Assembly (NCBI GenBank): GCA_043801855.1
Contig: JAZDLQ010000103.1
Coordinates: 1,834 to 65,833 of the forward strand
Length of the DNA: 64,000 bases
Direction: 5' to 3'
DNA from: an archaeon
GTDB lineage: Archaea > Nanobdellota > Nanobdellia > Woesearchaeales > GW2011-AR15
The notes under the pieces were generated by a model. It was not told the DNA's origin. It saw only the letters and a program-made list of their open reading frames with translations, and made no database searches. Of this stretch, positions 33,145-50,875 are shown piece after piece. Position 1 is the stretch's first letter, and the number at the start of each line of letters is the position of its first letter. Position numbers and translations under genes: made by a program.

Positions 33145-33849
33145 ATGAATAAAAAAAAGATGGCGATTTTATCAATTATTTCTCTTTTTATATTTAATAT
33201 TATTTCAATTGTCTTGGGTAAATCTAACATATATTTAGGAATAGCGCTTATTTTTTGCATATTATATCTTATTGGAATTGTCTTTAAAAGAACAGTTATT
33301 AAAAATAAATTTGGAGCATTTTGGCTTTTAGCTTATGCCTATTTGCTGATATTTATACCTATTCTATTATCTTATTTTAAAATAATAAAATCTAATGAAT
33401 TCTTGTTTTTGTTTTTCATATTTTTTAGTGTTATTGCTTATGAACTTGAAATTGATCCAAGGTATTCAATAGTAATGGCTCTTTTAATGCTTTGGCTTGC
33501 CCCATTTTTAATGTCATTTGGTATGAGCGCATTAGCAGAAGAGACAGCAATAATTGTTTACTATTTTTTAATATGCGCTCTGGCATTGCAGGTAATTCAA
33601 TTCAGGCAAAATTCAAAAATCAATATTGACCTTGATAAAATCAAGCTTATATTTATACGAAAGAATAATCTTTATTATGCGGTTTTCTGGCTGATCTTTT
33701 ATTTTATCGCAGGATATTTTTTGCTAAGCCCTATATCATTAGCTCTTAGCCTGTATTTTAGCACAGTGTTTGGATTTTTTTATGGCGCAAGGCTTTTGTT
33801 GAAACATGATACTAAAAAAAGCATTTGGAAAGGACTCGACACTTATTAA
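33145..33849 (+). CDS. Hypothetical polytopic membrane protein
   Basis: 234 aa with about seven hydrophobic helices and no recognisable motif. It is the first gene of the same-strand glycan cluster. Confidence 0.6.
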   Translation: MNKKKMAILSIISLFIFNIISIVLGKSNIYLGIALIFCILYLIGIVFKRTVIKNKFGAFWLLAYAYLLIFIPILLSYFKIIKSNEFLFLFFIFFSVIAYELEIDPRYSIVMALLMLWLAPFLMSFGMSALAEETAIIVYYFLICALALQVIQFRQNSKINIDLDKIKLIFIRKNNLYYAVFWLIFYFIAGYFLLSPISLALSLYFSTVFGFFYGARLLLKHDTKKSIWKGLDTY

Positions 33850-35068
33850 GGCTGGAGCCATATTTTTTATTGCATCTGTGCTTGGCGCTGCACTTAATTA
33901 CCTGTATCACTTAATCATTGGAAGGATGCTTGGCCCTGAAAAATATGGGGTATTAGGAAGCCTATTTGCAATCATATATTTTATCACTTTTTTTTCAGCC
34001 ACCTTTAACGTGGTTATCTCGAAATTTTCATCACATTTCAGCGGAAAAAGCGAGATTAGGCGCTTGAAGCACCTAATAATAGGTGCAGCTGGAAAAATCG
34101 CGCTTTATGGGAGCTTATTACTTGTCATTTATATCTTATTCAGCCCTCAGATAGCGCATTTTATGAATATAAGCGATATTAACGGAATCATTATTGTTGG
34201 TGTAATGGCTTATTTTTCAGTAATTTTCTCAATTCTTATTGGCGCATTAAACGGCATGCAGCGTTTTGTTTGGCAAAACATATCTTCTTTTAGCGCAGTT
34301 TTCCTAAAATTCTCTTTAGGAGTCTTTTTTGTATATATTGGGTTTGGAGTATTGGGAGCACTGGCTGCAGTTCTTATTGGGATTGTTGTTGGGATAATGG
34401 TTGCAATAATTCCTCTATTTTTAATGCTGCGAAAAATAAAGGCAGAAAAATTTGACTCTAAAAGCCTGTATTTGTTTGCACTCCCTGTCTTTATTTCTTC
34501 ATCATTATTGTCTTTTATGATAACAATAGATGTCTTTTTGGTCAAGCATTTTTTTAGCTCAGCTGATGCCGGCCACTATGCAGCGGCAGGAATGGTTGCA
34601 AAAATCATCTGGTTTGGAAGCGGATTTTTTGCGTCTCCGATTTTTCCGATGATAGTTGAGCTAAAAGCTAAGAAAAAAGACCCCTCAAAAATATTAAGGA
34701 AAGCGCTTGCCTATACAGCAATCATTGCTGCGATAGGGATAACTGCATATTATGCAGCGCCAATTTTAATTGTTTCCACGCTTTATGGAGCTGAGTATCT
34801 GGCAATTGCTGAGTATATATGGATATTTGGCTTTGCGCTGGGCATTTATTCTATTATCAATGTGCTCGTTTTGTATAATTTAGCAATTGAAAAGTATAAA
34901 TACATCTTCATATTGTTTATTGCTGCTATTATTGAGTGCACAGGAATATATTTATTCCATAGCGAATTAATTGATGTAGTAAAAATAGTGCTTGCAGCAA
35001 ATATTTTTTTGCTTTTGGGTTTGCTTTTTATCAATCGAAAGGACATTGGGGTTAAAATTGCGCAATAA
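33806..35068 (+). CDS. Wzx-like oligosaccharide flippase (MOP superfamily polysaccharide biosynthesis protein)
   Basis: 420 aa with about 12 TM helices. The N-terminal pattern KAGAIFFIASVLGAALNYLYHLIIGRMLGPEKYGVLG is typical of polysaccharide-export flippases. Confidence 0.7.
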   Translation: MILKKAFGKDSTLIKAGAIFFIASVLGAALNYLYHLIIGRMLGPEKYGVLGSLFAIIYFITFFSATFNVVISKFSSHFSGKSEIRRLKHLIIGAAGKIALYGSLLLVIYILFSPQIAHFMNISDINGIIIVGVMAYFSVIFSILIGALNGMQRFVWQNISSFSAVFLKFSLGVFFVYIGFGVLGALAAVLIGIVVGIMVAIIPLFLMLRKIKAEKFDSKSLYLFALPVFISSSLLSFMITIDVFLVKHFFSSADAGHYAAAGMVAKIIWFGSGFFASPIFPMIVELKAKKKDPSKILRKALAYTAIIAAIGITAYYAAPILIVSTLYGAEYLAIAEYIWIFGFALGIYSIINVLVLYNLAIEKYKYIFILFIAAIIECTGIYLFHSELIDVVKIVLAANIFLLLGLLFINRKDIGVKIAQ

Positions 35069-35795
35069 AAAGTTATCAGTGATTGTTCCTGTTTTTAAGG
35101 GAGGAAAATTTATTGAAGAAAATCTTTCTATTATGAAAAAAAGCTTTAGTGAGCAATTTGCGAATACTGAAATAATTGCTGTGATTGATGGTTCAACTGA
35201 CGACTCGTTATCGCAGGCTAAAAAAGTTGAAGGAATAAAAGTTGTCGGCTATACCAAGAATATGGGAAAAGGCTATGCCCTAAAATATGGGTTTAAGCAT
35301 GCAACTGGCGATTTTATCACATTCATTGATTGCGATATGAACCTGCATCCAAAGCAGCTTAGAAATTTTGTTCCTTATTTGTCAACCGCAGATATTGTTA
35401 TTGGAAGCAAAAGGCATCCTTTTTCCAAAGTGAATTATCCACTTACTAGAAAAATACTAAGCAAGGGATTTCAGCTTTATTCTTGGCTTGTTTTAGGCGT
35501 CAGCCTTCGCGATACACAATCTGGCTTAAAAATAATGAAACGAGAGGCTTTAGAAGTATTGCTGCCTCTTGTTGTCGTCAAAAGATATGCATTTGACTTA
35601 GAGCTAATGTTCTTAGCGCAAATGCATGGATTTAGGACTGTTGAAGCCCCAATACTCCTTAATTATGACAGGGAAATGCCATCAACTGTTGATTTAAAAG
35701 CAGCGTACGGGATGTTTATGGATGTTCTTGCCATCAGGTACCGGTTCTCCTTCACTAAATATTATCAAAAGCAATATCACAATCAATTCAAATGA
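35058..35795 (+). CDS. Family 2 glycosyltransferase (dolichyl-phosphate-sugar synthase-like)
   Basis: LSVIVPVFKGGKFIEE, VIDGSTDDS, FIDCDM and the SGLKIMKRE segment. I place the start at the TTG at 35058; the track ATG at 34992 would overlap the flippase by 77 nt. The start is uncertain. Confidence 0.8.
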   Translation: MRNKKLSVIVPVFKGGKFIEENLSIMKKSFSEQFANTEIIAVIDGSTDDSLSQAKKVEGIKVVGYTKNMGKGYALKYGFKHATGDFITFIDCDMNLHPKQLRNFVPYLSTADIVIGSKRHPFSKVNYPLTRKILSKGFQLYSWLVLGVSLRDTQSGLKIMKREALEVLLPLVVVKRYAFDLELMFLAQMHGFRTVEAPILLNYDREMPSTVDLKAAYGMFMDVLAIRYRFSFTKYYQKQYHNQFK

Positions 35796-36739
35796 AATTC
35801 TCAATTATTATTCCTGTCAAAAATATCAATGATTACATTATAGAGTCTATGGAGCATATGCAAAGACTTTTGCATAAAGATTTTGAGATAATAATTTTAC
35901 CGGATTATAATGAAAAAATAACTTATCCAAAGACGATAATTATTCCTACTGGAAGTGTTGGCCCTGCATTGAAGCGGGATATCGGCGCAAAAAAAGCAAA
36001 AGGCGAATTTTTAGCATTTCTTGATGATGATGCATATCCAAGGGAAAATTGGCTGAAAAACGCAGAAAAAAACTTTGCTGATGCTAATATCGCTGCAGTT
36101 GGAGGCCCTGCAGTGACTCCGATAAATGAAAGCATAAAAAGAAAAATATCCGGGCTTATTTTCAGCTGCCCAATAACAAGTGGCGGAGCAGGAACCTATA
36201 GGTATGTTCCAGGCAAGAGAAGATATGTTGATGATTTTCCTTCTGTTAATTTTATTGTTAGAAAGAGCGTTTTTGAAAAATTGAACGGTTTTGACACAAA
36301 TTTCTGGCCTGGAGAAGACACTAAACTGTGCCTTGACATAGTGCATAAATTAAATATGAAAATAATTTATGATCCGACAGTTTTAGTGTATCATCATAGG
36401 CGTGAAGTATATAAAGATCATTTAAAGCAGGTAAAGAGCTATGCAATCCACAGGGGATTTTTTGCAAAAAAATATCCACAGACGTCATTTAGGATAGGCT
36501 ATTTTATGCCATCAATCTTTGTCTTAGGATTGCTTTTAGGATGGCTTTTTTCTTTTGTACATATATTCTTTTTTTATTTTTATATAGCAACTGTCTTATT
36601 ATACATTATAATGGCTCTTGGAGATTCATTGAGGCATAAGAGTTTAGCTCATTATGTCTTTATAGGAGTTATCTTAACCCATCTTGCCTATGGTATTTTT
36701 TTTATGCAGGGCATATTATCTCAAAAGCTTAAACAATGA
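35792..36739 (+). CDS. Family 2 glycosyltransferase with C-terminal TM helices
   Basis: FSIIIPVKNINDYIIESMEHM, FLDDDAYP, WPGEDTKLC, and two or three C-terminal hydrophobic helices. ATGA overlap with the upstream gene. Confidence 0.85.
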   Translation: MKFSIIIPVKNINDYIIESMEHMQRLLHKDFEIIILPDYNEKITYPKTIIIPTGSVGPALKRDIGAKKAKGEFLAFLDDDAYPRENWLKNAEKNFADANIAAVGGPAVTPINESIKRKISGLIFSCPITSGGAGTYRYVPGKRRYVDDFPSVNFIVRKSVFEKLNGFDTNFWPGEDTKLCLDIVHKLNMKIIYDPTVLVYHHRREVYKDHLKQVKSYAIHRGFFAKKYPQTSFRIGYFMPSIFVLGLLLGWLFSFVHIFFFYFYIATVLLYIIMALGDSLRHKSLAHYVFIGVILTHLAYGIFFMQGILSQKLKQ

Positions 36740-38181
36740 AAATAGCAATATCATATCCTCCTCTTGTATCCACTAAAGGACGCGCTTTTTTATCCCAGAA
36801 TAGGCAGTTTCAATGGACACACACAAACAATGTGATATATCCTGTTGTGCCTGCATATGCTGCAACCATGCTCCAAAAGAGCGGCCACTCTGTCTTATGG
36901 GATGATGCAAATGCACAACTCCTCCATTTTGATAAATGGATTGCTCGATTGAATGCATTTTCTCCTGATGTTATTTTTTTTGAGACAAAAACTCCAGTTG
37001 TAAAACGACACTGGAAATTGATTGATATTATTAAAAGAAAAATGCCTAATGTACAAGTTATCCTTGCAGGAGACCATGTGACTGCATTTCCAGCAGAAAG
37101 CTTTGAAAATTGCGCTGTTGATTTTGTATTGACAGGAGGGGATTATGATTTTTTACTCTTAAATTTAGTGAATCATTTTAGCAATAAAGAGAAATTAGAG
37201 GGAGGAATTTATTATCGGAAAAATAATAATGTTGAATGCACCGGAAAATTTGTGCTTAATCATGACTTGTGCGCTCTTCCAATTATTGATCGGAGATTGA
37301 CAAGATGGAAAGATTACTCTATCAATAACTCAAACTATAAATATTTGCCAGGAGCATACACAATGGCAGCAAGAGACTGCTGGTGGGGAAAATGCACTTT
37401 TTGCTCATGGACAACACTATATCCTGGAGCGCATTATAGGTGCAATTCACCAATTAAGCTTCTTGATGAGATTGGGATACTTTCAAATAATTTCAAGGTA
37501 AAAGAAATCATGGATGATTCAGGATCATTTCCAACTGGTGAATTCCTTGATTCATTCTGCAGGGGCATGATTAAGCGGGGCTATAATAAAAAAATAAAAT
37601 TTGACTGCAATTTCAGGTTCAATGCTGTATCAAAAGAGCAATTTTTCCTTATGCGTAAAGCTGGTTTTCGCTTTATTCTCTTTGGCCTTGAAAGCGCGCA
37701 GCAATCGACGCTTGAGCATGTAAATAAAAATATTAAGATTGAGTATGTTGAAAGGGATTTGACATATGCTAAAAAAGCTGGACTTGATCCGCATATAACA
37801 GTAATGGTAGGATATCCCTGGGAATCAAAACAAGATGCTTCCAATACCCTTGACTTTGCAAAACAATTGTTCAGAAAAGGCCTTCTTGACAGTCTTCAGG
37901 CGACAATTGTTGTGCCATATCCGGGAACGCCATTATTTGAAGAATGCAGGAAGAATAATTGGCTAAAAACAGAAGACTGGGATGAATATGATATGAGCAA
38001 AAGCGTGATGAAATGCCATGTTTCCGATAACGAGCTTAAAGGAATGGTCAAGCAGATGTATAAAGGCGCGTTTTACCCAGGCTTTATTGCGCGGAAGATA
38101 CTATCTGTAAGAAATTATGATGATGTAAAACATCTGATGAGGTATGGTGTTAAGTTTCTGAAAAAATTGAGGGATTTTTAA
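36736..38181 (+). CDS. Cobalamin-binding-domain radical SAM enzyme with variant Cx4Cx2C cluster motif
   Basis: 481 aa. It has an N-terminal Rossmann-like B12-binding region (DVIFFETKT...VILAGDHVTA), a cluster motif RDCWWGKCTFCSW, and a GLESAQQSTL-type radical SAM core. ATGA overlap with the upstream GT2. Confidence 0.75.
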   Translation: MKIAISYPPLVSTKGRAFLSQNRQFQWTHTNNVIYPVVPAYAATMLQKSGHSVLWDDANAQLLHFDKWIARLNAFSPDVIFFETKTPVVKRHWKLIDIIKRKMPNVQVILAGDHVTAFPAESFENCAVDFVLTGGDYDFLLLNLVNHFSNKEKLEGGIYYRKNNNVECTGKFVLNHDLCALPIIDRRLTRWKDYSINNSNYKYLPGAYTMAARDCWWGKCTFCSWTTLYPGAHYRCNSPIKLLDEIGILSNNFKVKEIMDDSGSFPTGEFLDSFCRGMIKRGYNKKIKFDCNFRFNAVSKEQFFLMRKAGFRFILFGLESAQQSTLEHVNKNIKIEYVERDLTYAKKAGLDPHITVMVGYPWESKQDASNTLDFAKQLFRKGLLDSLQATIVVPYPGTPLFEECRKNNWLKTEDWDEYDMSKSVMKCHVSDNELKGMVKQMYKGAFYPGFIARKILSVRNYDDVKHLMRYGVKFLKKLRDF

Positions 38182-38209: not shown

Positions 38210-38599
38210 TTATTTTAATTGTTCAAAAAGATGTGTAATAATCTCCCTTATTATTGCTTTGTTTAACTCAATATAATTTTTGTGTATCATAAATCCCTCG
38301 TATGATATGCGATTTCTGTACTCTCTCATTTGCTGCAAAAATTGCCTCATCTGTTCATCTATTTTATTTTGTTTGGCAACATAATCAATAAGCTCTTGAT
38401 GAGCACCTTCTCCTTTTACTTTAACTCCTTCCCTTATCGTAATAGCCTCTATCAATTTGTGAACTACGTCATAGTAATCTGATAGAGTGTTACTTGGATA
38501 TTTTTCCATATCAGTATTGCTTAGTCTTTCTAGGGTGATCTCTGCCATCTTTCTTAGCGATTCTGATTTTTGCATATCTGGTTTAACTTTTGTAATCAT
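38210..38599 (-). CDS. HEPN-domain protein (toxin-like partner of the adjacent nucleotidyltransferase)
   Basis: 129 aa, all-helical, with a conserved Arg-containing helix (REYRNRISYEG). It overlaps the upstream MNT gene by 4 nt, the classic MNT-HEPN arrangement. Confidence 0.6.
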   Translation of the reverse strand: MITKVKPDMQKSESLRKMAEITLERLSNTDMEKYPSNTLSDYYDVVHKLIEAITIREGVKVKGEGAHQELIDYVAKQNKIDEQMRQFLQQMREYRNRISYEGFMIHKNYIELNKAIIREIITHLFEQLK

Positions 38600-39135: not shown

Positions 39136-39282
39136 ATATTACATATTTGTAAGACGTATTATATAAATGTATTGTTTTTTGGAACTTCCCTAAATAAATT
39201 AACGAAAAACATTGTTTTTATATTTTTGAGTAAAATATAATAATAAGTAACGTTATTTTTTTCTTATTAGGGGGAATATTGA

Positions 39283-39465
39283 ATGCCTAAAAGCCGTAAA
39301 ATGAAAGTCTCAGTTATCGTCACAACGAAAAACGAGGAGAGAAATATTGCTAGATGCCTGGTGAGTGTTAAGAATCAGAGCTACCCAAATATAGAGATAA
39401 TTGTTGTAGACAATAACTCAAGTGATAAGACAAAGGAGATTGCGAAAAGAGGCAGTAATAAATGA
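39283..39465 (+). pseudogene. 5' fragment (about 55 codons) of a GT2 gene, paralogous to the start of 40038-40877
   Basis: KVSVIVTTKNEERNIARCLVSVKNQSYPNIEIIVVDNNSSDKTKEIAK matches LVSVIVTTKNEERNIGRCLESVKNQSYSNIEIIVVDNDSSDKTKKIAK. The fragment then ends in an ATGA overlap with the DUF1016 ORF. Confidence 0.8.
39307..39446. repeat. Imperfect direct repeat of about 140 bp, copy 1 (GT2 5' end)
   Basis: GTCTCAGTTATCGTCACAAC...GATTGCGAA aligns with 40053-40192 at a constant offset of 746 nt. Most positions are identical by eye. Confidence 0.85.
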
Positions 39466-40031
39466 ACTCGATTAATAATGAGAAAGAATATATCTCTTTC
39501 CTCTTAGAGATAAAGGAGAGAATAAGAAACGCACAGTATGATGCATTAAGAGCAGTAAATAAAGAGCTTATCGGTTTATATTGGGATATTGGCAGGAAAA
39601 TATCTGAGCAGCAGGAAAAGCGTGGATGGGGAAAGTCCATAGTGGAAAATCTTGCCAAAGACCTGCAAAAAGAATATGAAGGAATAAAAGGATTTTCTGC
39701 ACAAAACCTATGGTATATGAGGCAATTCTACTCAAGCTACAGCTCTAATACAAAACTCCAGCCGCTGGTTGGAGAAATTAGCTGGGTGAAAAATGTAACA
39801 ATTATGAGCAAGTGCAAGGATGACTTAGAAAGAGAATTTTACATTAAAATGACTAAAAAGTTTGGCTGGACAAAAAATGTTTTGATAAATCAGATTGAAA
39901 ATAGGGCGTATGAGAAATACATTCTTAACCAGACAAATTTTGATCAAACATTAACTACACAGCTGCCAAATTATTTATTAAAATACCTCCCCTCAAAAGA
40001 AGAATTAATAAAAAAGTTGGAGATGTTATGA
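39462..40031 (+). CDS. DUF1016/YhcG-family protein lacking the PD-(D/E)xK nuclease core (apparent internal deletion)
   Basis: 189 aa. The N-terminal YhcG-type region (IRNAQYDALRAVNKELIGLYWDIGRKISEQQEKRGWGKSIVENLAKDL...FSAQNLWYMRQFY) runs directly into a family-typical C-terminal tail (LPNYLLKYLPSKEELIKKL). Full-length members are about 350 aa. Confidence 0.65.
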   Translation: MNSINNEKEYISFLLEIKERIRNAQYDALRAVNKELIGLYWDIGRKISEQQEKRGWGKSIVENLAKDLQKEYEGIKGFSAQNLWYMRQFYSSYSSNTKLQPLVGEISWVKNVTIMSKCKDDLEREFYIKMTKKFGWTKNVLINQIENRAYEKYILNQTNFDQTLTTQLPNYLLKYLPSKEELIKKLEML

Positions 40032-40037
40032 AAGAAG

Positions 40038-44325: not shown

Positions 44326-45809
44326 AGATATTGTTGCTTAATCCTGGATGGCTATTGAAAAAAGAAGATGCAGATTTTTTCAGGATAAGCCAGCCTGACA
44401 GCCTTGGATATATCGCTGCTGCACTTAAAGAAGCCGGCCACAATGTAAGGCTGATTGATGCAGCATCAACAGGTTGGAAAGAATCCTGTTTTTCTGAAGG
44501 GAATGTTTATTTTGGCATGCATATAAAAAAAATAATTGAGGAAATAAGACTATTTTCTCCAAATTTAATAGGTGTGCCGCTAATCTCAAGCTTCCTGAAA
44601 AACAACGGCTTTTTTGCATTGAGCAAGATTAAAAAAGCGTTCCCTGATATATTGACTGTTGTTGGAGGGGCTCATGCAACTGTTGCTGTAGAAGAATGCC
44701 TGCAAAAGGAATTTATTGACTTTGTGGTAATTGGGGAAGGAGAAAAAACAACACTTGAATTGGCTAATGAATTAAGCGCAAAAAATCCTGAATTTGAAAA
44801 AATAGATGGGCTTGCTTTTAAGAGAAAAAATGGGATTGTCATTAATAAAAAAAGGGAGTTGATATCAAATCTAGATGCCTTGCCTTTCCCATCAAGAGAA
44901 CTTTATCCAATGGATAATTATTTCATTGCTGCAAAAAAATTAATATCGACATTTGCACTTTCTACATATGGAAAAAAATGGGCTACAGTCATAACCAGCC
45001 GGGGCTGCCCTTATAATTGTATTTTTTGCTCAATCTATCTTAGCATGGGCAGGAAATGGAGGCCAAGAAGCCCAGAAAATGTGATTCTTGAGATTGAGCA
45101 GCTTATACAAGATTATGGCATAGAATATATTGCATTTTTAGATGACAATATGTCACTTGATAAGAGCAGAATGAAAAGGATATGTGAATTGATTATTTCC
45201 CGCAAGCTAAGAATAAAGTGGAGCACGCCTAATGGCCTGCGAGCAGACACATTGGATGAGAGCTTGTTGCGGCTGATGAAAAAGTCAGGATGTGAACGAA
45301 TTGCTGTAGCTGCTGAGAGCGGAAGCCAGAGAGTTGTTGATCAGATAATAGGAAAAAATCTCCAGCTGACAGAGGTTGTAAGAGTTGTTTCGATGTGCAA
45401 GAAAATAGGATTAAAGGTTGATTGTTTTTTTGTTATGGGTTTAATTGGTGAGACAAAAAAAGATCTAGGAATGACTGTAGATTTTGCAAGGCATCTGCAC
45501 AAGATTGGAGTGAGCGGCTTAAACATTGCGATTGCAACCCCTTTTCCAGGAACAGAGTTCTATAAGCAATGCATTGAAAAAAAATTAATATCAACGAATT
45601 TCGATAAGTTTACCATGTTTCGTGGGGATTTTTACATAGCCACAGAGGATTTCAGCGCTGAAGAGCTTAGGATGTACAAGAAGAGGGCAGATAAAATAAT
45701 CTTTTTTCATAAGGATTACCTGCGGTTTCTAATATTATTGCTGCTTAATGACCCTTTAAAGTTTATCAGGTTCTTTATTAATCATATCAAAATGTTTTTA
45801 AAAACATGA
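44322..45809 (+). CDS. Cobalamin-binding-domain (class B) radical SAM enzyme
   Basis: 495 aa with an N-terminal B12-binding-like region (NLIGVPL...TVVGGAHATV) and the canonical SRGCPYNCIFCS cluster motif. ATGA overlap with the upstream GT2. Confidence 0.8.
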   Translation: MKILLLNPGWLLKKEDADFFRISQPDSLGYIAAALKEAGHNVRLIDAASTGWKESCFSEGNVYFGMHIKKIIEEIRLFSPNLIGVPLISSFLKNNGFFALSKIKKAFPDILTVVGGAHATVAVEECLQKEFIDFVVIGEGEKTTLELANELSAKNPEFEKIDGLAFKRKNGIVINKKRELISNLDALPFPSRELYPMDNYFIAAKKLISTFALSTYGKKWATVITSRGCPYNCIFCSIYLSMGRKWRPRSPENVILEIEQLIQDYGIEYIAFLDDNMSLDKSRMKRICELIISRKLRIKWSTPNGLRADTLDESLLRLMKKSGCERIAVAAESGSQRVVDQIIGKNLQLTEVVRVVSMCKKIGLKVDCFFVMGLIGETKKDLGMTVDFARHLHKIGVSGLNIAIATPFPGTEFYKQCIEKKLISTNFDKFTMFRGDFYIATEDFSAEELRMYKKRADKIIFFHKDYLRFLILLLLNDPLKFIRFFINHIKMFLKT

Positions 45810-45855: not shown

Positions 45856-47301
45856 ATGAAAATTCTGTTCGTAATTCCATGGATGAAATCGCTCTTTGGA
45901 GATGAAAGAACTCCTCCAGGCCACCCTCATCTGGGAATTGCATATCTATCAGCAGTCCTAAAGCAAGAGGGGCATAATGTTCGTGTTTTTGATCAGGGGA
46001 TTGAAAAGGATGATTCAAAATTATACTCTCTTATTGAGGATTTTAAGCCGAATATAATTGGTATTACTGCATTTAGCTATTGCATGAAATTTGTGAAAGA
46101 GCTGATTAATGAGATAAAAAAAAAATCAAAAGCCCCAATTGTGATAGGCGGCCCCCACGTGGCTGCTCTGCATTCAGAAATTTTACAAAAGACAAAAGCT
46201 GATTTTGCAATAAAAGGCGAGGCTGAAAATTCATTTATTGGTTTTCTGAATAATCTTCCATCCGGAGATTTTGCAAAAGCTGATGGCCTGATATGGAAGA
46301 AGCCAAATGGCGAAATAATAGAGAATAAAGATGCAGCTTATATAAAAGATCTGGATTCTATTCCTTTCCCTGATTTTGCAGTCTTTGATTTCAAAAGATA
46401 TAATTATTACCAGAACAAAACAATACCTCTTCTTACATCAAGAGGATGCCCTTATGGATGCAATTACTGTTCAGTTCGGCTTTCAATGGGCAGGGGATTT
46501 AGGCCAAGGAGCGCTGATAATGTCATCTCAGAGATAACGCTCTGGTATAATAGAGGATTCACCAATTTTGAATTCAATGATGATTGCTTTTCATTAGATC
46601 TTGGCAGGGCAAAACTTATCTGCAGGAAAATACTTGAGAGCAAGATTAAAATTACATGGCAGCTTTATAATGGAATAAGGGTCGATAGGGTTGATTATGA
46701 ATTGCTATTGCTTATGAAAAAAGCAGGCTGCATATTCATTTCATACGGAAGCGAGTCAGGTGTACAGGATATAATTAATAAAATCGGAAAGGGAATCAGG
46801 CTTGAGCAGGTTGAACAAGCAGTCAATCTGACAAACAAGGCAGGGATTAAGAATTCTGTAAATTTTATAATTGGCCATCCAGGAGAAACCTATAGCCTTG
46901 CGTTAAAATCAATTCGGTTTGCCTCAAAATTAAGGACTGGCTTTGTTAATTTTTATAATGTCATTCCTTATCCAGGAACTACGCTTTGGGATTGGATTGA
47001 GAAAAACGGAAAATGGCTTTACCCAAAGGATTACATACTGGAGAATGTAGGAAGCCGTGATTTAACGCCAGTATTTGAGACAAATGAGTTTAGAAGAAAT
47101 GATAGGATTAAGGCGCTTAAACTTGGATTTGCATTGTATGAAAAAACAATCATGAAATTCAGGCTTGGTGGATTTGTCGGAACATCTGCTTATTATTTTA
47201 CAAGGGTGCCGTTTGTCTTTCGGGCAGCAAGATACATTGCACTTGAAAATAAATTTGGAAATTTAGTTTATAATATAATGACCGGAAAGTCCAGAAAGTG
47301 A
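45856..47301 (+). CDS. Cobalamin-binding-domain (class B) radical SAM enzyme
   Basis: 481 aa with NIIGITAF...IVIGGPHVAA and the SRGCPYGCNYCS cluster motif. It is a paralogue of 44322-45809. Confidence 0.8.
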   Translation: MKILFVIPWMKSLFGDERTPPGHPHLGIAYLSAVLKQEGHNVRVFDQGIEKDDSKLYSLIEDFKPNIIGITAFSYCMKFVKELINEIKKKSKAPIVIGGPHVAALHSEILQKTKADFAIKGEAENSFIGFLNNLPSGDFAKADGLIWKKPNGEIIENKDAAYIKDLDSIPFPDFAVFDFKRYNYYQNKTIPLLTSRGCPYGCNYCSVRLSMGRGFRPRSADNVISEITLWYNRGFTNFEFNDDCFSLDLGRAKLICRKILESKIKITWQLYNGIRVDRVDYELLLLMKKAGCIFISYGSESGVQDIINKIGKGIRLEQVEQAVNLTNKAGIKNSVNFIIGHPGETYSLALKSIRFASKLRTGFVNFYNVIPYPGTTLWDWIEKNGKWLYPKDYILENVGSRDLTPVFETNEFRRNDRIKALKLGFALYEKTIMKFRLGGFVGTSAYYFTRVPFVFRAARYIALENKFGNLVYNIMTGKSRK

Positions 47302-47310
47302 GTTGCGTTA

Positions 47311-49257
47311 ATGGAATACAGTAAATTTAATGATATAATTACTCAGATAAGAAAAGTAGTTCACAATAAAAATAAAAGTCCAAATAAGTGGTGTTATTTA
47401 ACTAGCATAGAATACATGGTTGAATCCCGCATATACCTTAATAGTATGCATAATGATTTATTAAAAGTAAAAAATTACCTCAAAGAAGGCGACCATATTC
47501 TTGACTTTGGAACAGGCAGCGGGATTTTTGCGATGCTGCTTTCAAAATATAATGTATCAGTTGATGCTATTGATACAATTGAAAACAAAAGCCAGTCTGA
47601 TCCCAATTTTAATGATACAAAGATAAAGCAAAAGGAGATATGGCAAGAATTCAAAAAAAAATTCAATGTTGACTTTAGGCATTATGACGGAAAAAAGCTT
47701 CCATTTCCAGACAACTGCTTTGATGTAATTACAACATATGCAGTAATTGAACATATAACAAAATCAGACCTTAAAATAGTAATGCCTGAATTACAAAGAG
47801 TTCTTAAGCCCGACGGACTTTTGTTTGTTTTTAAGCTCCCAAGAAAGTTTGCTTATATTGAATATGTGGCAAAACTATTAAATCTGGGCGGACATGAGGA
47901 TTTATACGGAGATAGGCATTCAAAATTATTTTTTAAAGAACATGGTTTTACGACTTTAGAATATTGGAAATCTGTTCTTTTCTTTGAATATCCCGGCAAG
48001 ATTACTAATAAGCTCTATTGGATTTTTATTAATCTTGAGAAAATATTTAACAGAACTCCTCTGATGCTGTTTTCGCATGATAACAATTTTGTGCTCAGAA
48101 AATCAAGCCAACCAGAAAACGCTGAGGTTTTGATGATTGCTCCAACTTTTCTTCCTGTTGTTGGGGGAAGTGAAACTCATATAAATGACCTTGTGAATTT
48201 TCTTTCAAAAAAAAATATTTATGTTAATTTAATAGCCTGCACGTATAACAAAAAGGAAACTCCATATGTTGAAAAGCACAAGAACCATCAAATAATAAGA
48301 ATTAAATGCTTAGCTCCCTGGATGAATGAATTGTTTAAGTTATCTTCTGTGTCCTATTTTATTTTGATTGCTCCTATTCAGATTTTATTTTCAGTTTTTT
48401 TTATGGCAAAACACCATAAGAGAATTAAATTTGTCCATGTGCATGCTTTTACAGCAGGATTTTGCGGGATAATTCTGAAAATTTTGTTTCCAAAAAAAAG
48501 ATATGCGCTTAGTGTCCATGGCATTTATTTTAGCAAAAATCCAAAACATCTAAGGTATAATAAGTATGCGGGCTATATTCGGTTCATAAGCAGTTTCTAT
48601 GACAGAATATTTGCTATTGGCAAAAGATCAGCAGCTGAACTTGCTGAAATAGGAATTGACATGAAAAAAATCATCAGATATAGGTATTGGGTTGATGAAG
48701 GCATATTTAAACCAGTTCGAGTTGAGAAGAAAAAAAGATTGCAAGTCCTCTTTGTAGGAAGGCTTATCCACGCTAAAGGAGTTGATATACTGCTTGAAGC
48801 AGCTAAAAAAATGAAAGATATTGATTTTTTATTTGCGGGTGAAGGAGACCTTACAGAACAAATTAGTTCTGCCCTAAAAAAATACAATAATATTAAGCTT
48901 CTTGGCAGGTTAAATCAAGAGGAGCTGCCTTTTTATTATTCTTCGTCGGATTTAACTATTCTTCTATCACAAAATGATGGTGAGGGACTGCCGCGAGTGC
49001 TTATTGAATCATTATTTTGTGGAACTCCTGTTATAGGCACTGACTGCGGCGGGACTAAAGAGCTAATAAGCTCAGATGTGGGGTTTATTGTCAAGCGAGA
49101 TATAGATAGCTTAATAAGATGCCTTGAAACGTACAAAAATAATTTAAGCTTACAAAAAAAATTAAAGGCTAATGCAAGGAAATATGCACAAGAAAATTTT
49201 TCAATCAATGAAGCAGGAGTATTTATTGAATGGTACAAAAATCAAAACAAAAATTAA
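47311..49257 (+). CDS. Fusion protein: N-terminal SAM methyltransferase plus C-terminal GT4-type glycosyltransferase
   Basis: 648 aa. Methyltransferase motifs: ILDFGTGSGIFA, FDVITTYAVIEHI, LKPDGLLFVF. GT4 region: MIAPTFLPVVGGSETH...FVGRLIHAKGVDILLEA...GEGLPRVLIESLFCGTPVIGTDCGG. Confidence 0.8.
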   Translation: MEYSKFNDIITQIRKVVHNKNKSPNKWCYLTSIEYMVESRIYLNSMHNDLLKVKNYLKEGDHILDFGTGSGIFAMLLSKYNVSVDAIDTIENKSQSDPNFNDTKIKQKEIWQEFKKKFNVDFRHYDGKKLPFPDNCFDVITTYAVIEHITKSDLKIVMPELQRVLKPDGLLFVFKLPRKFAYIEYVAKLLNLGGHEDLYGDRHSKLFFKEHGFTTLEYWKSVLFFEYPGKITNKLYWIFINLEKIFNRTPLMLFSHDNNFVLRKSSQPENAEVLMIAPTFLPVVGGSETHINDLVNFLSKKNIYVNLIACTYNKKETPYVEKHKNHQIIRIKCLAPWMNELFKLSSVSYFILIAPIQILFSVFFMAKHHKRIKFVHVHAFTAGFCGIILKILFPKKRYALSVHGIYFSKNPKHLRYNKYAGYIRFISSFYDRIFAIGKRSAAELAEIGIDMKKIIRYRYWVDEGIFKPVRVEKKKRLQVLFVGRLIHAKGVDILLEAAKKMKDIDFLFAGEGDLTEQISSALKKYNNIKLLGRLNQEELPFYYSSSDLTILLSQNDGEGLPRVLIESLFCGTPVIGTDCGGTKELISSDVGFIVKRDIDSLIRCLETYKNNLSLQKKLKANARKYAQENFSINEAGVFIEWYKNQNKN

Positions 49258-49781
49258 ATTTGGGATGCGGGCAAAAAAAGCTTAAAGGATATATCAATGT
49301 AGATTTCAATCCAGAAACTAGCCCGGATATAATTCATGATCTTAATAATTTTCCGTATCCTTTCAAAGACAATTCCTTTAAAGAAATATTACTAGACCAT
49401 GTGCTTGAGCATCTTAATGATCCTATAAAAGTAATAATCGAGCTTAACAGGATATCGAACCATGATGGATTAATAATTGTAAAATCTCCTCATTTTTCAT
49501 GCAACTGGCTGCATCCTGGCCACAAAAGTGCAATAAGCTCGATGCTTTTTTCGTATTTTGAGCACAAGGGAAGTGATTATTATGGCCAATGCAAATTTAA
49601 TGTTCTTAGTATCAAGCTTAAATGGATGCGTAACCCCAAATTAAGAAATTTTATTGTAAGAGGAATTAATGCAGCAATAAATTATTTAGCAAACCTAAAT
49701 ATTGGATTTTGCCAAAGGGTTTGGTGCTACTGGGTTGGCGGGTTTGAAGAAATTGAGTTTCGTGTGAATGTAAAAAAATGA
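49230..49781 (+). CDS. SAM-dependent methyltransferase (type 11-like)
   Basis: 183 aa with LNLGCGQKKLKGYINVD, ILLDHVLEHL and GLIIVKSPH. It overlaps the upstream gene by 28 nt. Confidence 0.75.
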   Translation: MVQKSKQKLNLGCGQKKLKGYINVDFNPETSPDIIHDLNNFPYPFKDNSFKEILLDHVLEHLNDPIKVIIELNRISNHDGLIIVKSPHFSCNWLHPGHKSAISSMLFSYFEHKGSDYYGQCKFNVLSIKLKWMRNPKLRNFIVRGINAAINYLANLNIGFCQRVWCYWVGGFEEIEFRVNVKK

Positions 49782-50875
49782 AGAAAATATCAGATTCAAT
49801 TGTATTGAATCCAAAGAATGCAATAAGGATATTCAATTCAGGAGTTTCATGCCTTATTCAAGGCCAAAAATCAGGCCTGCCGCTGCGGCTTCAGGTAGAG
49901 CTATCAGGCAAGTGCAACCTGGCATGTGAAATGTGCCCGCATTCTTATCTTGATAAAAAAAATAAGACTTCAGGATTCATTTCCTTTGAGACATACAAAA
50001 AATTATTTGAGCAGATAAATCCCCTTCTTGTTGATTTTACTGGCCAGGGAGAAGCTATGCTAAATCCTGAGATATACAAGATTGCAGATTATACGAATAA
50101 GAAAGGTGTACGGTTCGGATTTAACTCAAATTTCACTCTGCTTGGAAAAGAAAATTTCTACAGGCTTTATAAAACTGGAATTTGTTATCTGGGACTTTCT
50201 TTGGACAGCATAAACAAGAAAACCTATGAGAAAATTAGAATAGGGGCTAGTTTTGATAAAGTAATTTCAAATTTTAAGGCAGCATTAAAAATAGATGTTC
50301 GCAAAATATTGACCATCGGAACAGTTATAACTGATTTAAATATTGATGAACTTGAGGACATTATTCTTTATTGCAGAAAGAATTTTCCAGGAGTTCCTTT
50401 TGTTTTTTCTCCGCCTCTTTCTTATGGCCTTGAGGTGATGGAATCATATTTTAAGGAAAAAGAGATTTTTACTGCCAAAAAAAGATATTTTATTTCAAAG
50501 ATTAGTAAAGTGAAGCAACTTGCGTCAAAATTAAATCTAAAAGATACTGCTGTTTCTTTGGCAGACAGCCGTGATTATTTTTCATCTGATCGTACCTTAA
50601 ATACAGATAAAGCCTGCTATATGCCATATCTGAACCTCATGGCGTTTAGCAATGGCAATGTCTACCCTTGCTGCTACATGCCTTTTAACAAGAATCCGTT
50701 TGGCAATGTATTTTATGAAAATTTTAGTGATATTTGGAATAACAAAAAATTTTTTGCGTTCAGGAAAGCGCTTAAGGCCAATAGGAAATCAATTAGAGAA
50801 TGTTCACTTTGCAGGTTTACCTCAAGCCAAGCAAAATATCTCTTGCCTGTTAGAAGGATGCTTTTCTTGAAGTAA
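49778..50875 (+). CDS. Radical SAM enzyme with C-terminal SPASM/twitch-like Cys cluster
   Basis: 365 aa with LSGKCNLACEMCPH (CxxxCxxC), the GQGEAMLNPE segment, and a C-terminal Cys-rich segment (CYMPY...GNVYPCCYM...CSLC). ATGA overlap with the upstream gene. Confidence 0.8.
   Translation: MKKISDSIVLNPKNAIRIFNSGVSCLIQGQKSGLPLRLQVELSGKCNLACEMCPHSYLDKKNKTSGFISFETYKKLFEQINPLLVDFTGQGEAMLNPEIYKIADYTNKKGVRFGFNSNFTLLGKENFYRLYKTGICYLGLSLDSINKKTYEKIRIGASFDKVISNFKAALKIDVRKILTIGTVITDLNIDELEDIILYCRKNFPGVPFVFSPPLSYGLEVMESYFKEKEIFTAKKRYFISKISKVKQLASKLNLKDTAVSLADSRDYFSSDRTLNTDKACYMPYLNLMAFSNGNVYPCCYMPFNKNPFGNVFYENFSDIWNNKKFFAFRKALKANRKSIRECSLCRFTSSQAKYLLPVRRMLFLK

Follow-up and report, generated by a model that had tools for sequence, protein, structure and literature searches.

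A putative cell-envelope glycan locus combining glycosyltransferase and radical SAM modules in a Woesearchaeota-like DPANN archaeon

Characterised radical SAM enzymes of class B are mostly methylases (review PMC12931638), and the B12-dependent enzymes have been described with a CX3CX2C motif; cobalamin binding itself is a property that no sequence signature can establish. AprD4, a sugar 1,2-diol dehydratase, binds no cobalamin (PMC12931638); for HpnJ and the calditol synthase Cds, lipid-linked sugars are the proposed substrates (PMC13459092). Here we describe an archaeal operon that joins four radical SAM genes to a set of glycosyltransferase genes, within a 64,000-nucleotide stretch of contig JAZDLQ010000103.1 (the window). 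A sequence-only reading had taken it for a glycan-type locus of which the radical SAM genes are a functional part, which agrees with the synteny seen in many genomes and with the lack of clustering with non-glycan enzymes, and had called the system undescribed; we likewise found no published description of these glycosyltransferase and radical SAM cassettes in the literature. The reading that we favour, at a probability of roughly 60%, is that the region is a horizontally shared mosaic of GT2 and radical SAM modules assembling a cell-envelope glycan in a Woesearchaeota-like DPANN archaeon. The host assignment is backed by an ArgRS encoded in the window, which shares 65% identity with Woesearchaeota MAGs.

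The ORFs lie at the coordinates given in that earlier reading, with 13 tightly packed biosynthetic genes on the + strand between 33806 and 50875, encoding a flippase, four GT2s, a methyltransferase-GT4 fusion, two other methyltransferases, an AsnB amidotransferase, three B12-domain radical SAM proteins and one radical SAM protein with a SPASM Pfam match. Fourteen same-strand genes had been counted; the packing on the + strand stands, and the set is made up of 13 biosynthetic genes and a DUF1016 ORF rather than fourteen pathway genes. Base-by-base inspection verified all of the overlaps reported: start and stop codons share an ATGA at 35792, 36736, 44322 and 49778, and the overlap is longer at 43396 (16 nt) and at 49230 (28 nt). 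An insert at 38.2-40.0 kb is, as had been claimed, the sole interruption, and the remaining intergenic gaps are 46 nt or less. Domains were called with Pfam at gathering cut-offs, and NCBIfam supplied the family models.

The operon begins with a MOP/Wzx-type flippase (33806..35068; Polysacc_synt 62.2 bits, cut-off 28.2) with about 10 TM-like segments by hydropathy. Its start is overlapped by 44 nt by a small + strand protein (33145..33849) that has 7 TM-like segments by hydropathy, no Pfam or NCBIfam match, and no homologue in any related locus by BLAST. GT2a (34992..35795) is of the polyprenyl-phosphate-sugar synthase type (DPMS/ArnC/GtrB-like), its nearest solved relatives being the Pyrococcus furiosus Dol-P-Man synthase 5mlz (57.7 bits), ArnC and GtrB, with partial NCBIfam matches to PgfS, PpgS, ArnC and a Dol-P-hexose transferase; because its orthologues are 248-249 aa long, the true start probably lies near 35046 rather than at the TTG at 34992. 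GT2b (35792..36739; Glycos_transf_2 and Glyco_trans_2_3) is membrane anchored, with two TM-like segments at its C-terminus by hydropathy, while GT2c (40038..40877) and GT2d (43396..44325) match Glycos_transf_2 at 100 and 127 bits. Among the methyltransferases, MT1 (40879..41568) is a class I SAM enzyme (Methyltransf_11, 77.9 bits), the fusion protein (47311..49257) joins an N-terminal methyltransferase domain to a GT4 (Methyltransf_11, Glyco_transf_4, Glycos_transf_1), and MT3 (49230..49781; 183 aa) is methyltransferase-like, matching Methyltransf_11 weakly (27.2 bits) and carrying the SAM-binding motif LGCGQ. The AsnB-type glutamine amidotransferase (41570..43411; GATase_7 and Asn_synthase) begins ATG TGC (Met-Cys), giving a Cys2 nucleophile; it scores 494 against TIGR03108, under the cut-off of 816.9, and passes the generic asparagine synthase model TIGR01536 (493.6, cut-off 267), a pass which counts against the glycan explanation.

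On one side the operon is met by two tandem, paralogous, AftD-like GT-C membrane glycosyltransferases of 1468 and 1041 aa (50899..58430, - strand, convergent with the operon). They match GT-C_AftD at 33.5 bits (cut-off 26) and 21.2 bits, share 41% identity and have 10-12 TM-like segments each; they are likely to be the extracytoplasmic transferases. Related clusters also end in large GT-C-like proteins, with PMT_2 in locus L002, a faint AftD match in L084 and weak homologues in eight others. On the other side, + strand genes for surface proteins that are giant or secreted form a block (12365..33041; 3095, 399, 633, 282, 535, 245 and 1683 aa); the proteins have N-terminal hydrophobic segments. 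Two of them (at 22875 and 25579) contain YadA_head repeats, a third (at 27990) has Big_7/Big_13, and the 3095-aa protein has weak Ig-like and macroglobulin matches; these proteins could be glycan acceptors or co-expressed surface structures.

Parts of this operon recur widely. The first B12-domain protein, rSAM_A, has at least 6139 protein matches and 580 matching stretches in a species-genome collection, the best 80 of the 580 being 49-58% identical, and its relatives of 49-59% identity span CPR bacteria, Desulfovibrio relatives, anammox bacteria, Methanoperedens and Bathyarchaeia. In 66 of 74 loci rSAM_A is preceded, at no more than 3.5 kb, by a GT2b orthologue (at least 35% identity); 52 of 64 have GT2a or the flippase within 8 kb, flippase homologues of 22-34% identity lie alongside in 38 of 83, and GT2c homologues, up to 64% identical, follow downstream in 23 of 75. 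The cassette is present in Methanoperedens and Kuenenia, and in the cultured Fundidesulfovibrio agrisoli, where two NDP-sugar SDR enzymes flank it. For the third such protein, rSAM_C, 313 metagenome relatives were recovered (the best 80 of 313 at 44-62% identity); a GT2d-like gene, with orthologues 50-59% identical, lies directly (within 600 bp) upstream in 43 of 65 metagenome loci, and at least three class-B-like radical SAM proteins occur in 14 of 27 long loci. Orthologues of the fusion's methyltransferase domain (43-52% identity) come directly after rSAM_C in five loci, including L002, L083 and L165, and the same methyltransferase follows directly or within about 2.5 kb in five more. MT1 orthologues (44-52% identity) occur in five loci, L002 and L266 among them, and rSAM_B orthologues (53-58% identity) sit within syntenic clusters. 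AsnB shares a block with GT2d and rSAM_C in six loci (among them L002, L083, L165 and L266), but most related loci lack it (it is present in 3 of 27 long ones), a point against the glycan explanation.

Four loci (L002, L083, L084 and L165) show orthologue-level synteny with the window at 42-64% identity gene by gene, and the metagenome contig L266 is largely collinear with it, lacking the insert and rSAM_B and having an extra 1.6 kb or so between rSAM_A and GT2c. Chance juxtaposition is thus not what we see, the same orthologues being adjacent in dozens of unrelated genomes. The cluster is not a DPANN peculiarity; it is a mosaic of modules widespread in anaerobes, and its units of a glycosyltransferase and a radical SAM enzyme turn up in hundreds of uncultured anaerobes as well as in a few that have been cultured. 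Two observations weigh on the other side: one rSAM_B orthologue (53% identity) lies alone in a purine operon, and Bathyarchaeia relatives of about 40% identity form radical SAM arrays without glycosyltransferases, so the wider family is not glycan-specific.

A tailored envelope glycan as the operon product is well supported, and this product is probably a cell-surface sugar carrying undescribed modifications. Observed are the genes and their domains, and which pairings are conserved and where they occur; from these we infer substrates, an order of steps, the chemistry of each radical SAM enzyme, cobalamin use and an acceptor. Three modules would take part: flippase, GT2a, GT2b, rSAM_A and GT2c; MT1, AsnB, GT2d, rSAM_B, rSAM_C and the methyltransferase(-GT4); and MT3 with the fourth radical SAM enzyme, which is of the twitch type. 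At the cytoplasmic face, the GT2 and GT4 enzymes would build sugars on polyprenyl (dolichyl) phosphate as the carrier, and tailoring would occur while the sugars are lipid-linked or nascent. The three AprD4/class-B-like enzymes may attack unactivated sugar carbons by radical chemistry, with C-methylation, dehydration/deoxygenation or rearrangement as the outcome; the BtrN-like twitch enzyme may perform carbinol oxidation or epimerisation, the class I methyltransferases O- or N-methyl addition, and AsnB carboxyl amidation. The flippase would then flip the tailored product across the membrane, and outside it the GT-C pair would transfer the product to an acceptor on the surface, for which the giant proteins encoded next door are plausible candidates. 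Domain searches of the 64-kb window found no nucleotide-sugar synthesis gene, initiating phosphoglycosyltransferase or AglB/STT3, so carrier and acceptor are guesses. MOP flippases usually carry PP-linked oligosaccharides and AftD-type GT-C enzymes usually use P-linked monosaccharide donors, and hence at least two carriers or routes may be mixed here.

It had been predicted that the glycan would be heavily C-methylated, and in a rather unlikely version of this each of the three B12-domain enzymes would be a cobalamin-dependent C-methyltransferase (GenK/Fom3-like), yielding a multiply C-methylated, amidated glycan. That each has both domains is confirmed: the thresholds for B12-binding and Radical_SAM are passed by rSAM_A (36736..38181; 37.8 bits, cut-off 32.1, and 39.3 bits, cut-off 29.5), rSAM_B (44322..45809; 56.2 and 88.9 bits) and rSAM_C (45856..47301; 70.8 and 66.7 bits), and the prevalence of methylases in class B also favours methylation. 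The canonical CX3CX2C is present in rSAM_B (CPYNCIFC) and rSAM_C (CPYGCNYC), which have partial matches to P-/C-methyltransferase models (Sden_1168, 193 bits, and PhpK, 128 bits). However, these scores lie far under the cut-offs (193 versus 575 for Sden_1168), and no radical SAM protein of the operon reaches the cut-off of any curated NCBIfam family, methylase or other equivalog, nor does any cluster with a characterised non-glycan enzyme. Among solved structures the top sequence match of all three is AprD4, the cobalamin-free dehydratase (91 bits for rSAM_B; MgmA, CysS and TsrM are further relatives of rSAM_C), and it is also the top fold match (6fd2, TM 0.72-0.76) of the AF2 model of rSAM_A (pLDDT 83.7), the one B12-domain protein that was modelled. 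Family alignment shows the invariant cluster motif of rSAM_A, RDCWWGKCTFCSW, to be CX4CX2C and not the CX3CX2C of described B12-dependent enzymes; rSAM_A belongs to a strongly conserved, uncharacterised family. Furthermore, rSAM_C already has class I methyltransferases among its conserved partners. Heavy C-methylation is therefore an assumption, and C-methylation only one possible chemistry among several.

It is unlikely that the head group of a membrane glycolipid, rather than a polymer or protein glycan, is what the modules decorate, with rSAM_A contracting the ring of a lipid-linked sugar in the manner of HpnI/HpnK/HpnJ (hopanoid glucosamine to cyclitol ether) or Cds. HpnJ is the top NCBIfam match of rSAM_A and spans it fully (residues 33-479 against profile positions 31-468 of 472), the tight pairing of rSAM_A with the membrane-anchored GT2b parallels HpnI-HpnJ, and the lipid-linked substrates proposed for HpnJ and Cds also speak for it. 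Yet the score of 176 bits is far under the cut-off of 577.6, GT2b has no HpnI match in NCBIfam, and an exported oligo- or polysaccharide is what the flippase, several further glycosyltransferases and the GT-C transferases suggest. Because bacteria and archaea differ in their membrane lipids and the cassette is found in both, any lipid substrate would have to be one that they share, such as polyprenyl phosphate; the archaeal-lipid chemistry once offered as an alternative is unlikely, the rSAM_A cassette being mostly bacterial.

The enzyme at 49778..50875 (Radical_SAM and SPASM Pfam matches) had been labelled SPASM. Its invariant cysteines are C46, C50, C53, C280, C298, C342 and C345, the last four forming one auxiliary site, as in BtrN, and not the 7-Cys SPASM set, and residues 276-351 align to the auxiliary-cluster region of BtrN; the label is better replaced by twitch type. 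Few members of this subfamily are known (43 representatives at E 1e-30 or better; best 41% identity). The overlapping 183-aa/365-aa pair with MT3 recurs in one other contig, an MT3 orthologue of 59% identity is found in another, and a distant homologue of the twitch enzyme is clustered with GT4, PIG-L and B12-domain radical SAM genes. Since AprD4 and BtrN are both aminoglycoside enzymes, and the tailoring set of methyltransferases and amidotransferase is rich, an aminoglycoside- or nucleoside-sugar-like secondary metabolite might be envisaged in place of an envelope glycan, but we consider this decidedly improbable given the MOP flippase, membrane-anchored GT2s and polyprenyl-phosphate-sugar synthase type GT2a, the adjoining GT-C transferases and giant surface proteins, the occurrence in genome-reduced CPR and DPANN lineages, and an operon without aminocyclitol or NDP-sugar aminotransferase genes. 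Least credible of all is a RiPP-like system in which a peptide is modified by SPASM and B12 radical SAM enzymes before being glycosylated, for despite the SPASM match, Foldseek matches to the sactipeptide/streptide maturases CteB, SuiB and SkfB, and partial matches to ApyD and RiPP C-methyltransferase models, the sugar-directed BtrN, BlsE and DesII match the fold equally well, the four auxiliary cysteines make the rule that SPASM enzymes act on peptides inapplicable, a precursor gene cannot fit in the operon's gaps nor an RRE domain before a radical SAM motif beginning at residue 46, and neither a protease nor an ABC exporter is present.

The insert, by its domain content, appears to be a small defence islet outside the pathway. 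Its HEPN (38210-38599, - strand; Pfam HEPN/HepT) and nucleotidyltransferase (38596-39135, - strand; Pfam NTP_transf_2) form a toxin-antitoxin or candidate-defence like pair that is covered by PADLOC PDC-M05B/PDC-M05A and has the lowest G+C of the region (0.31). A DUF1016 ORF of 189 aa (39462..40031, + strand) consists of the N-domain only (DUF1016_N, 164 bits), without the usual C-terminal nuclease half, and matches PADLOC PDC-S02, whose profiles are up to 357 long, at positions 1-168. Its start overlaps (ATGA) the stop of a 60-aa remnant resembling the N-terminus of GT2c (39283..39465, + strand), the DNA at 39306-39446 being 86.5% identical to 40052-40192 over 141 ungapped nt.

Between 33806 and 50875 the plus strand carries a near-continuous run of open reading frames, which we read, with a probability of roughly 60%, as a locus producing a tailored envelope glycan. 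Every domain call of the sequence-only reading is backed by Pfam: a MOP/Wzx flippase (33806; Polysacc_synt), GT2 glycosyltransferases GT2a, GT2b, GT2c and GT2d (34992, 35792, 40038 and 43396), B12-binding plus Radical_SAM proteins rSAM_A, rSAM_B and rSAM_C (36736, 44322 and 45856), class I methyltransferases at 40879 (MT1), in the N-domain of a GT4 fusion (47311) and, weakly, at 49230 (MT3), an AsnB-type amidotransferase starting Met-Cys (41570), and a Radical_SAM plus SPASM protein (49778), all on the plus strand. The ATGA start/stop overlaps it placed at 35792, 36736, 44322 and 49778 were all verified, as were those at 43396 and 49230, of 16 nt and 28 nt respectively; a defence insert at 38.2-40.0 kb aside, the remaining junctions are gaps of 1-46 nt. 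Its assumption of a DPANN host likewise holds, because the window's ArgRS is 65% identical to Woesearchaeota MAG genes.

The locus is a glycan assembly cluster of a known kind, to which an uncharacterised but widespread tailoring layer has been added. As proposed here, the GT2 and GT4 enzymes would build a glycan on a polyprenyl phosphate carrier, the radical SAM, methyltransferase and AsnB enzymes would tailor the carrier-linked or nascent sugars, the MOP flippase would turn the product across the membrane, and AftD-like GT-C enzymes would effect transfer outside the membrane, with adjacent giant surface proteins as plausible acceptors. GT2a is of the polyprenyl-phosphate-sugar synthase type, since its closest similarities are to Pyrococcus Dol-P-Man synthase, ArnC and GtrB; GT2b resembles TarP, TarS, GalT1 and PglI and ends in two C-terminal hydrophobic helices, and GT2d is nearest to the rhamnosyltransferase subfamily. 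Carrier-bound tailoring that precedes GT-C transfer is familiar from the Arn, Gtr and decaprenyl-P-arabinose routes, and the ArnC/ArnD/ArnEF/ArnT, GtrA/GtrB/GtrC and decaprenyl-P-arabinose plus AftA-D systems share with the window the logic of carrier tailoring, flippase and terminal GT-C, the last being AftD-like in the window and PMT_2 in the related cluster L002. There, Ugd-, formyltransferase- and deacetylase-type genes resembling those of the Arn pathway stand next to the radical SAM block, together with GT2- and PMT_2-type genes. The window departs from Arn and Gtr in its flippase, which is MOP/Wzx-type and not GtrA or ArnEF, in its many more glycosyltransferases and its radical SAM tailoring, and in an acceptor that is putative.

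Giant or secreted proteins, among them two of 3095 aa and 1683 aa, are encoded together upstream (12365-33041). On the downstream side, two convergent genes encode paralogues of 1468 aa and 1041 aa, each with a GT-C_AftD N-domain and 10-12 hydrophobic segments, after which comes a CBM_4_9 protein. None of the window's major ORFs encodes STT3/AglB, an initiating phosphoglycosyltransferase or a nucleotide-sugar enzyme, nor does any match Glycos_transf_4 or Bac_transf; the locus is thus not placed within archaeal N-glycosylation (Agl), genes for which could lie elsewhere in the genome. The AsnB protein has the family's Met-Cys start and matches GATase_7 (154 bits) and Asn_synthase (281 bits). It scores 493.6 on the generic asparagine synthase model TIGR01536 (cut-off 267) and 494.3 on TIGR03108, the XrtA/PEP-CTERM EPS amidotransferase; because the cut-off of the latter is 816.9, it is not a member, although it shares with the AsnB-type amidotransferases of polysaccharide loci (TIGR03108, WbpS-like) a two-domain build, a Cys2 nucleophile and a glycan locus. 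Within this locus type AsnB is an accessory gene, found in 3 of the 27 long loci, and a uronic-acid-forming dehydrogenase is absent from the window but present in L002.

The sequence-only reading had allowed that these genes might be juxtaposed by chance, which is not upheld by the orthologue-level synteny found in contigs L002, L083, L084, L165, L266 and L323. L002 is ordered GT2b, rSAM_A, GT2c (each with intervening sequence), then rSAM_B, MT1, GT2d, AsnB, rSAM_C, a methyltransferase (MT), rSAM_D, a big membrane protein and PMT_2; L323 reads GT2c, rSAM_B, MT1, GT2d, AsnB, rSAM_C, MT, rSAM_D; and L083 and L165 share the order rSAM_B, AsnB, GT2d, rSAM_C, MT, rSAM_D, MT and a 938-aa membrane protein. 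L084 runs from rSAM_B through flippase, GT2a, GT2b, rSAM_A, a GT2, MT and rSAM_D to an AftD-like GT-C gene. L266 (GT2b, rSAM_A, GT2c, MT1, AsnB, GT2d, rSAM_C, GT-C) follows the order of the window minus the defence insert and rSAM_B, and has ~1.6 kb of additional sequence separating rSAM_A from GT2c. In pairwise BLAST, the genes of L002, L083, L084 and L165 are gene-by-gene orthologues of the window's at 42-64% identity, and paralogues within the window are 22-35% identical to each other. The window's own rSAM_B has no exact entry in the contig index. The closest rSAM_B homologues (53-58% identical) lie in contigs with the same neighbours, and one rSAM_B orthologue is found by itself within a purine operon. 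When metagenomes were scanned with an rSAM_C alignment, 313 relatives came up, of which the best 80 are 44-62% identical, and a GT2d-like gene lies no more than 600 bp upstream of rSAM_C in 43 of 65 loci. Judged by this conservation, the gene juxtaposition in the window is meaningful, and the operon is put together, mosaic-like, from three or more conserved modules, because the cassette around rSAM_A, the rSAM_C block and the MT3/twitch pair all recur elsewhere. Loci of at least 15 kb carry on average 2.4 class-B-like radical SAM genes, with three or more in 14 of 27; richness in such genes is a recurrent trait of this locus type, not a singular event.

Several features of the related clusters deserve separate mention. 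The fourth class-B-like paralogue, rSAM_D (~510 aa), regularly follows the rSAM_C-MT pair (L002, L083, L084, L165 and many more); the window is without it, the MT there being fused to GT4, with MT3 and the twitch radical SAM gene coming next. In L083 (9712-9921) and L165 (3605-3808) a ferredoxin gene of 67-69 aa lies immediately upstream of rSAM_B, in the opposite orientation, and adjoins GHMP-kinase and NDP-sugar epimerase genes; it could possibly be a dedicated reductant for the radical SAM enzymes; the window's operon has no ferredoxin gene of this kind. Bathyarchaeia (L085-L164; for example L091, L099, L104 and L143) have rSAM_B and rSAM_C homologues, at 28-45% identity, in arrays of class B paralogues that reach eight matches per 21 kb and lack glycosyltransferases, relatives of ~40% identity among them, which shows that functional inference at the family level has its limits. 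Several homologues in L104 look split, through frameshifts in long-read MAGs or as pseudogenes.

The most widely conserved module is the cassette of GT2a or flippase, GT2b and rSAM_A, sometimes with GT2c. rSAM_A has at least 6139 protein matches, the top 120 all 54-59% identical, and 580 matching stretches in a species-genome collection, the best 80 of the 580 at 49-58% identity. Its bacterial hosts include Shapirobacteria, Berkelbacteria and other CPR, Nitrospinota, Elusimicrobia, Dehalococcoidia, Spirochaetota, Omnitrophota, Thermodesulfobacteriota (including the cultured Fundidesulfovibrio agrisoli) and Brocadiaceae/Kuenenia; archaeal hosts in the species-genome collection are Methanoperedens and Bathyarchaeia. 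The locus is not DPANN-specific, and the nearest relatives of rSAM_A in that collection are bacterial (best, Berkelbacteria at 58%), which suggests inter-domain transfer. Among 85 rSAM_A orthologues, with testable loci as denominators, a GT2b orthologue lies on the same strand within 3.5 kb upstream in 66 of 74, GT2a or the flippase lies no further than 8 kb upstream in 52 of 64, and a GT2c homologue lies downstream in 23 of 75. Such strict pairing of GT2 and radical SAM genes suggests that each radical SAM enzyme edits the sugar installed by its partner glycosyltransferase. The family motif RDCWWGKCTFCSW, of the form CX4CX2C with C215, C220 and C223 as its cysteines in rSAM_A, is invariant, and its loop is the one stretch inside the rSAM_A AlphaFold model where confidence is low; the family is remarkably constrained.

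In a Kuenenia sp. MAG (SOET01000033.1; L168 1-3637, minus strand) a protein of at least 1573 aa without Pfam domains adjoins GT2a, flippase, GT2b and rSAM_A. Papers on the heavily methylated S-layer O-glycan of Kuenenia name no biosynthetic genes (PMC5088730, PMC7709395), and a link between the cassette and that glycan is a lead only.

As to chemistry, all three B12-domain proteins have the class B architecture of a B12-binding domain and a radical SAM core, scoring 37.8 (36736), 56.2 (44322) and 70.8 bits (45856) on PF02310 (cut-off 32.1) and 39.3, 88.9 and 66.7 bits, in the same order, on PF04055 (cut-off 29.5). The canonical CX3CX2C motif is present in rSAM_B (CPYNCIFC) and rSAM_C (CPYGCNYC); the rSAM_A family instead has CWWGKCTFC, that is, CX4CX2C, and in this rSAM_A departs further from the class. 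None of the four radical SAM proteins reaches a curated NCBIfam cut-off. The equivalog models compared include HpnJ, BchE, PhpK, Sden_1168, HpnR, BzaD, MgmA, TsrM, ApyD and AprD4, and the best matches were HpnJ for rSAM_A (176 against a cut-off of 577.6), the Sden_1168 P-methyltransferase for rSAM_B (193 against 575) and ApyD for rSAM_C (163.5 against 750).

By sequence, the structurally solved enzyme closest to each of the three proteins is AprD4 (PDB 6fd2; 30-91 bits), followed by MgmA/QCMT (9ccb), CysS, TokK, TsrM and OxsB. The AlphaFold (AF2) model of rSAM_A (pLDDT 83.7) also matches AprD4 best (TM 0.72-0.76), genuine cobalamin enzymes coming next, with TsrM, OxsB, TokK, CysS and MgmA among its matches. 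AprD4 is a radical SAM 1,2-diol dehydratase that acts on the paromamine sugar ring in apramycin C3'-deoxygenation; like rSAM_A, rSAM_B and rSAM_C it has an N-terminal Rossmann-like domain and a radical SAM barrel, and its substrate is a glycoside. It nonetheless shares only ~15% identity with rSAM_A in structural alignment, its NCBIfam model gives the three proteins 41-116 bits against a cut-off of 500, the window has no adjacent AprD3-like reductase, rSAM_A has CX4CX2C, and AprD4 belongs to a soluble antibiotic pathway whereas the window's enzymes lie in an envelope locus. In Fundidesulfovibrio agrisoli SG106 (L204), where the order reads SDR, GT2, GT2b, rSAM_A, GT2c, SDR, the SDR genes flank the cassette, an arrangement compatible with AprD4-like dehydration and subsequent reduction. 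Despite its Rossmann-like domain AprD4 binds no cobalamin, according to a 2026 review (PMC12931638), and because class B enzymes bind the cofactor base-off, with neither protein ligand nor marker motif (PMC12931638), cobalamin dependence is not decidable from sequence.

That all three enzymes are cobalamin-dependent C-methylases is a tentative proposition with the odds against it. C-methylation would have class B precedent by analogy: among the sugar and phosphonate methylases drawn from PMC12931638 and general knowledge (GenK, GenD1, Fms7, Fom3, PhpK and Sden_1168), GenK, GenD1 and Fms7 C-methylate glycoside sugars, and the group shares its architecture and partial model matches with the window proteins. 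These methylases, however, serve antibiotic pathways and not GT2-paired envelope cassettes, and the window proteins, which are putative cobalamin users, do not approach their equivalog cut-offs. By analogy, the candidate chemistries are C-methylation, AprD4-like dehydration or deoxygenation, and HpnJ/Cds-like ring contraction (PMC13459092).

The best-surviving alternative to a tailored envelope glycan is decoration of a glycolipid head group, which is possible, and a parallel is offered by HpnI-HpnK-HpnJ of the hopanoid cyclitol ether and by the calditol synthase Cds. HpnJ and Cds are proposed to reshape a lipid-linked sugar through ring contraction (PMC13459092). As in the cassette, the Hpn system pairs a GT2 with a BchE/HpnJ-like radical SAM enzyme, and HpnJ is the top NCBIfam match of rSAM_A; the window, however, has no HpnK deacetylase. 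To our knowledge the cassette hosts lack hopanoids, and we know of no biochemical characterisation of HpnJ or Cds themselves. Equivalence to HpnI-HpnJ was rejected, the HpnJ score of rSAM_A being 176 against 577.6 and no HpnI occurring among the GT2b matches at E 1e-5 or better, and the pair is kept only as a mechanistic analogy. Within the envelope glycan reading, a narrower proposal, which we regard as doubtful and something of a long shot, is that rSAM_A performs a radical transformation of a polyprenyl-phosphate-linked sugar that would be new to envelope biogenesis (carbocycle-forming ring contraction, C-branching and deoxygenation are candidates), rSAM_B, rSAM_C and the twitch enzyme adding further edits. 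If true, a monosaccharide as yet uncharacterised would be common on the surfaces of many anaerobic, largely uncultured prokaryotes.

The flippase, the membrane glycosyltransferases, the GT-C enzymes and the occurrence of such loci in the reduced genomes of CPR and DPANN speak against a diffusible secondary metabolite.

The 49778 protein bears on a third alternative, a RiPP or protein-directed system. It had been called a SPASM enzyme, and its Pfam SPASM match reaches 46.9 bits, but its only invariant C-terminal cysteines are C280, C298, C342 and C345, with no further cysteine after them, and not the seven that serve two auxiliary [4Fe-4S] clusters in SPASM proteins. We assign it to the twitch type because these four fall in register with the BtrN auxiliary-cluster region (residues 276-351). 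BtrN, the butirosin twitch radical SAM enzyme, is a 2-deoxy-scyllo-inosamine dehydrogenase with a carbohydrate-like substrate. BtrN (PDB 4m7t) matches with 52.9 bits overall and 33 bits in the auxiliary domain, where all four cluster cysteines are kept; the core domains are only weakly similar (17.7 bits) and the twitch enzyme is ~100 residues longer. Its top NCBIfam model is N_Twi_rSAM (92.6, cut-off 170). The fold search returned peptide-directed (CteB, SuiB, SkfB, anSME) and sugar-directed (BtrN, BlsE, DesII) enzymes at similar scores and so has no power to separate the two. A RiPP system is unlikely, since the operon, with gaps of at most 46 nt, has no precursor gene, its ORFs have no peptidase, protease or exporter in Pfam, and the four-cysteine twitch enzyme leaves no room for an RRE domain, its radical SAM motif beginning at residue 46. 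For the twitch enzyme, BtrN-like carbinol oxidation or epimerisation is, by analogy, a candidate chemistry.

The twitch subfamily is small, with 43 members at E 1e-30 or better among 1.84 billion representatives (HMMER), the best 41% identical. MT3 (183 aa) and the twitch enzyme (365 aa), whose genes overlap, reappear as such a pair in L249 with no change in length, and a 31% homologue of the twitch enzyme lies in another cluster with GT4, PIG-L, MT and B12-radical SAM genes. In two relatives, P0090 (863 aa) and P0114 (848 aa), an rSAM_B-family B12-radical SAM protein is naturally fused to a C-terminal SPASM radical SAM domain; as a Rosetta-stone link these were set aside, the SPASM halves being ~28% identical to the twitch enzyme and the support weak.

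Archaeal lipid-chain modification, which the sequence-only reading offered as an alternative, is unlikely, since most carriers of the best-conserved cassette are bacteria.

Full-text literature, of which coverage was incomplete, yielded no description of these cassettes or of radical SAM-rich glycan clusters in DPANN or CPR, in keeping with the earlier claim that the combination had not been described. Antibiotic pathways (GenK, AprD4, BtrN, DesII) supply the known examples of sugar tailoring by radical SAM enzymes; we know of no characterised case in primary cell-envelope glycan assembly. CPR and DPANN surfaces mediate an episymbiotic lifestyle. The radical SAM genes are no local oddity, GT2 plus radical SAM cassettes being present in hundreds of genomes of both prokaryotic domains, and the question is experimentally tractable by genetics and glycan chemistry because the cassette occurs in a cultured sulfate reducer, Fundidesulfovibrio agrisoli. 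Solving the cassette would assign function to several very large radical SAM families, rSAM_A alone exceeding 6000 sequences, and might explain unassigned methylated or odd-mass sugars reported on the S-layer glycans of anaerobes. Recent reviews of B12-radical SAM and lipid-modifying radical SAM enzymes list no polysaccharide-directed member (PMC12931638, PMC13459092).

The insert at 38.2-40.0 kb comprises a HEPN/nucleotidyltransferase pair on the opposite strand and an ORF with a DUF1016 N-domain, matching PADLOC candidate defence families PDC-M05A/B and PDC-S02. It is placed between rSAM_A and GT2c (38210-40031), and its DUF1016 gene is a half gene. A 60-aa ORF (39283-39465, plus strand), whose stop overlaps the DUF1016 start (ATGA), is the N-terminus of a second GT2c-like glycosyltransferase; 39306-39446 is 86.5% identical in DNA, ungapped over 141 nt, to 40052-40192 at the 5' end of intact GT2c. 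The insert therefore either came with a duplicated GT2c 5' end or made one that then diverged, and the match favours recombination with a related cluster over a plain insertion. The collinear contig L266 lacks the insert, and in the Kuenenia MAG a PDDEXK_3 gene (L168 7409-7822) separates GT2b from rSAM_A; the rSAM_A neighbourhood has the look of a hot spot for insertions. Further downstream, past the glycan genes, a 412-aa protein (59890-61128, plus strand) that carries an IrrE/M78 peptidase domain and weakly matches PADLOC capP is followed by a DUF4411 protein (61321-61725, plus strand), and the two may form another small defence or toxin-antitoxin-like pair. A tRNA scan and an Rfam scan for riboswitches and other RNAs found nothing in the window.

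Trimeric-autotransporter adhesins of bacteria contain YadA-head repeats, and proteins rich in them (22875-24776 and 25579-27186, one with 14 matched stretches) are found here in an archaeal genome, among the 3095-aa and 1683-aa surface proteins. Some 'binchicken' and other co-assembly MAGs (e.g. L004, L083, L089, L176) have organism labels that look unreliable, for example 'uncultured Methanosarcinales' on an ArgRS that shares 64% identity with the Woesearchaeota-like query, and either 'Pseudomonadales' or 'Saccharibacteria' on loci with an anaerobe-type cluster; such labels were not relied on. ArgRS of Fibrobacter/Fibrobacteraceae (L038, L043, L046, L047) is 45-47% identical to that of the window, inside the DPANN archaeal range, whereas other bacterial ArgRS reach only 34-41%; on this comparison, argS may have undergone inter-domain transfer involving Fibrobacteraceae.
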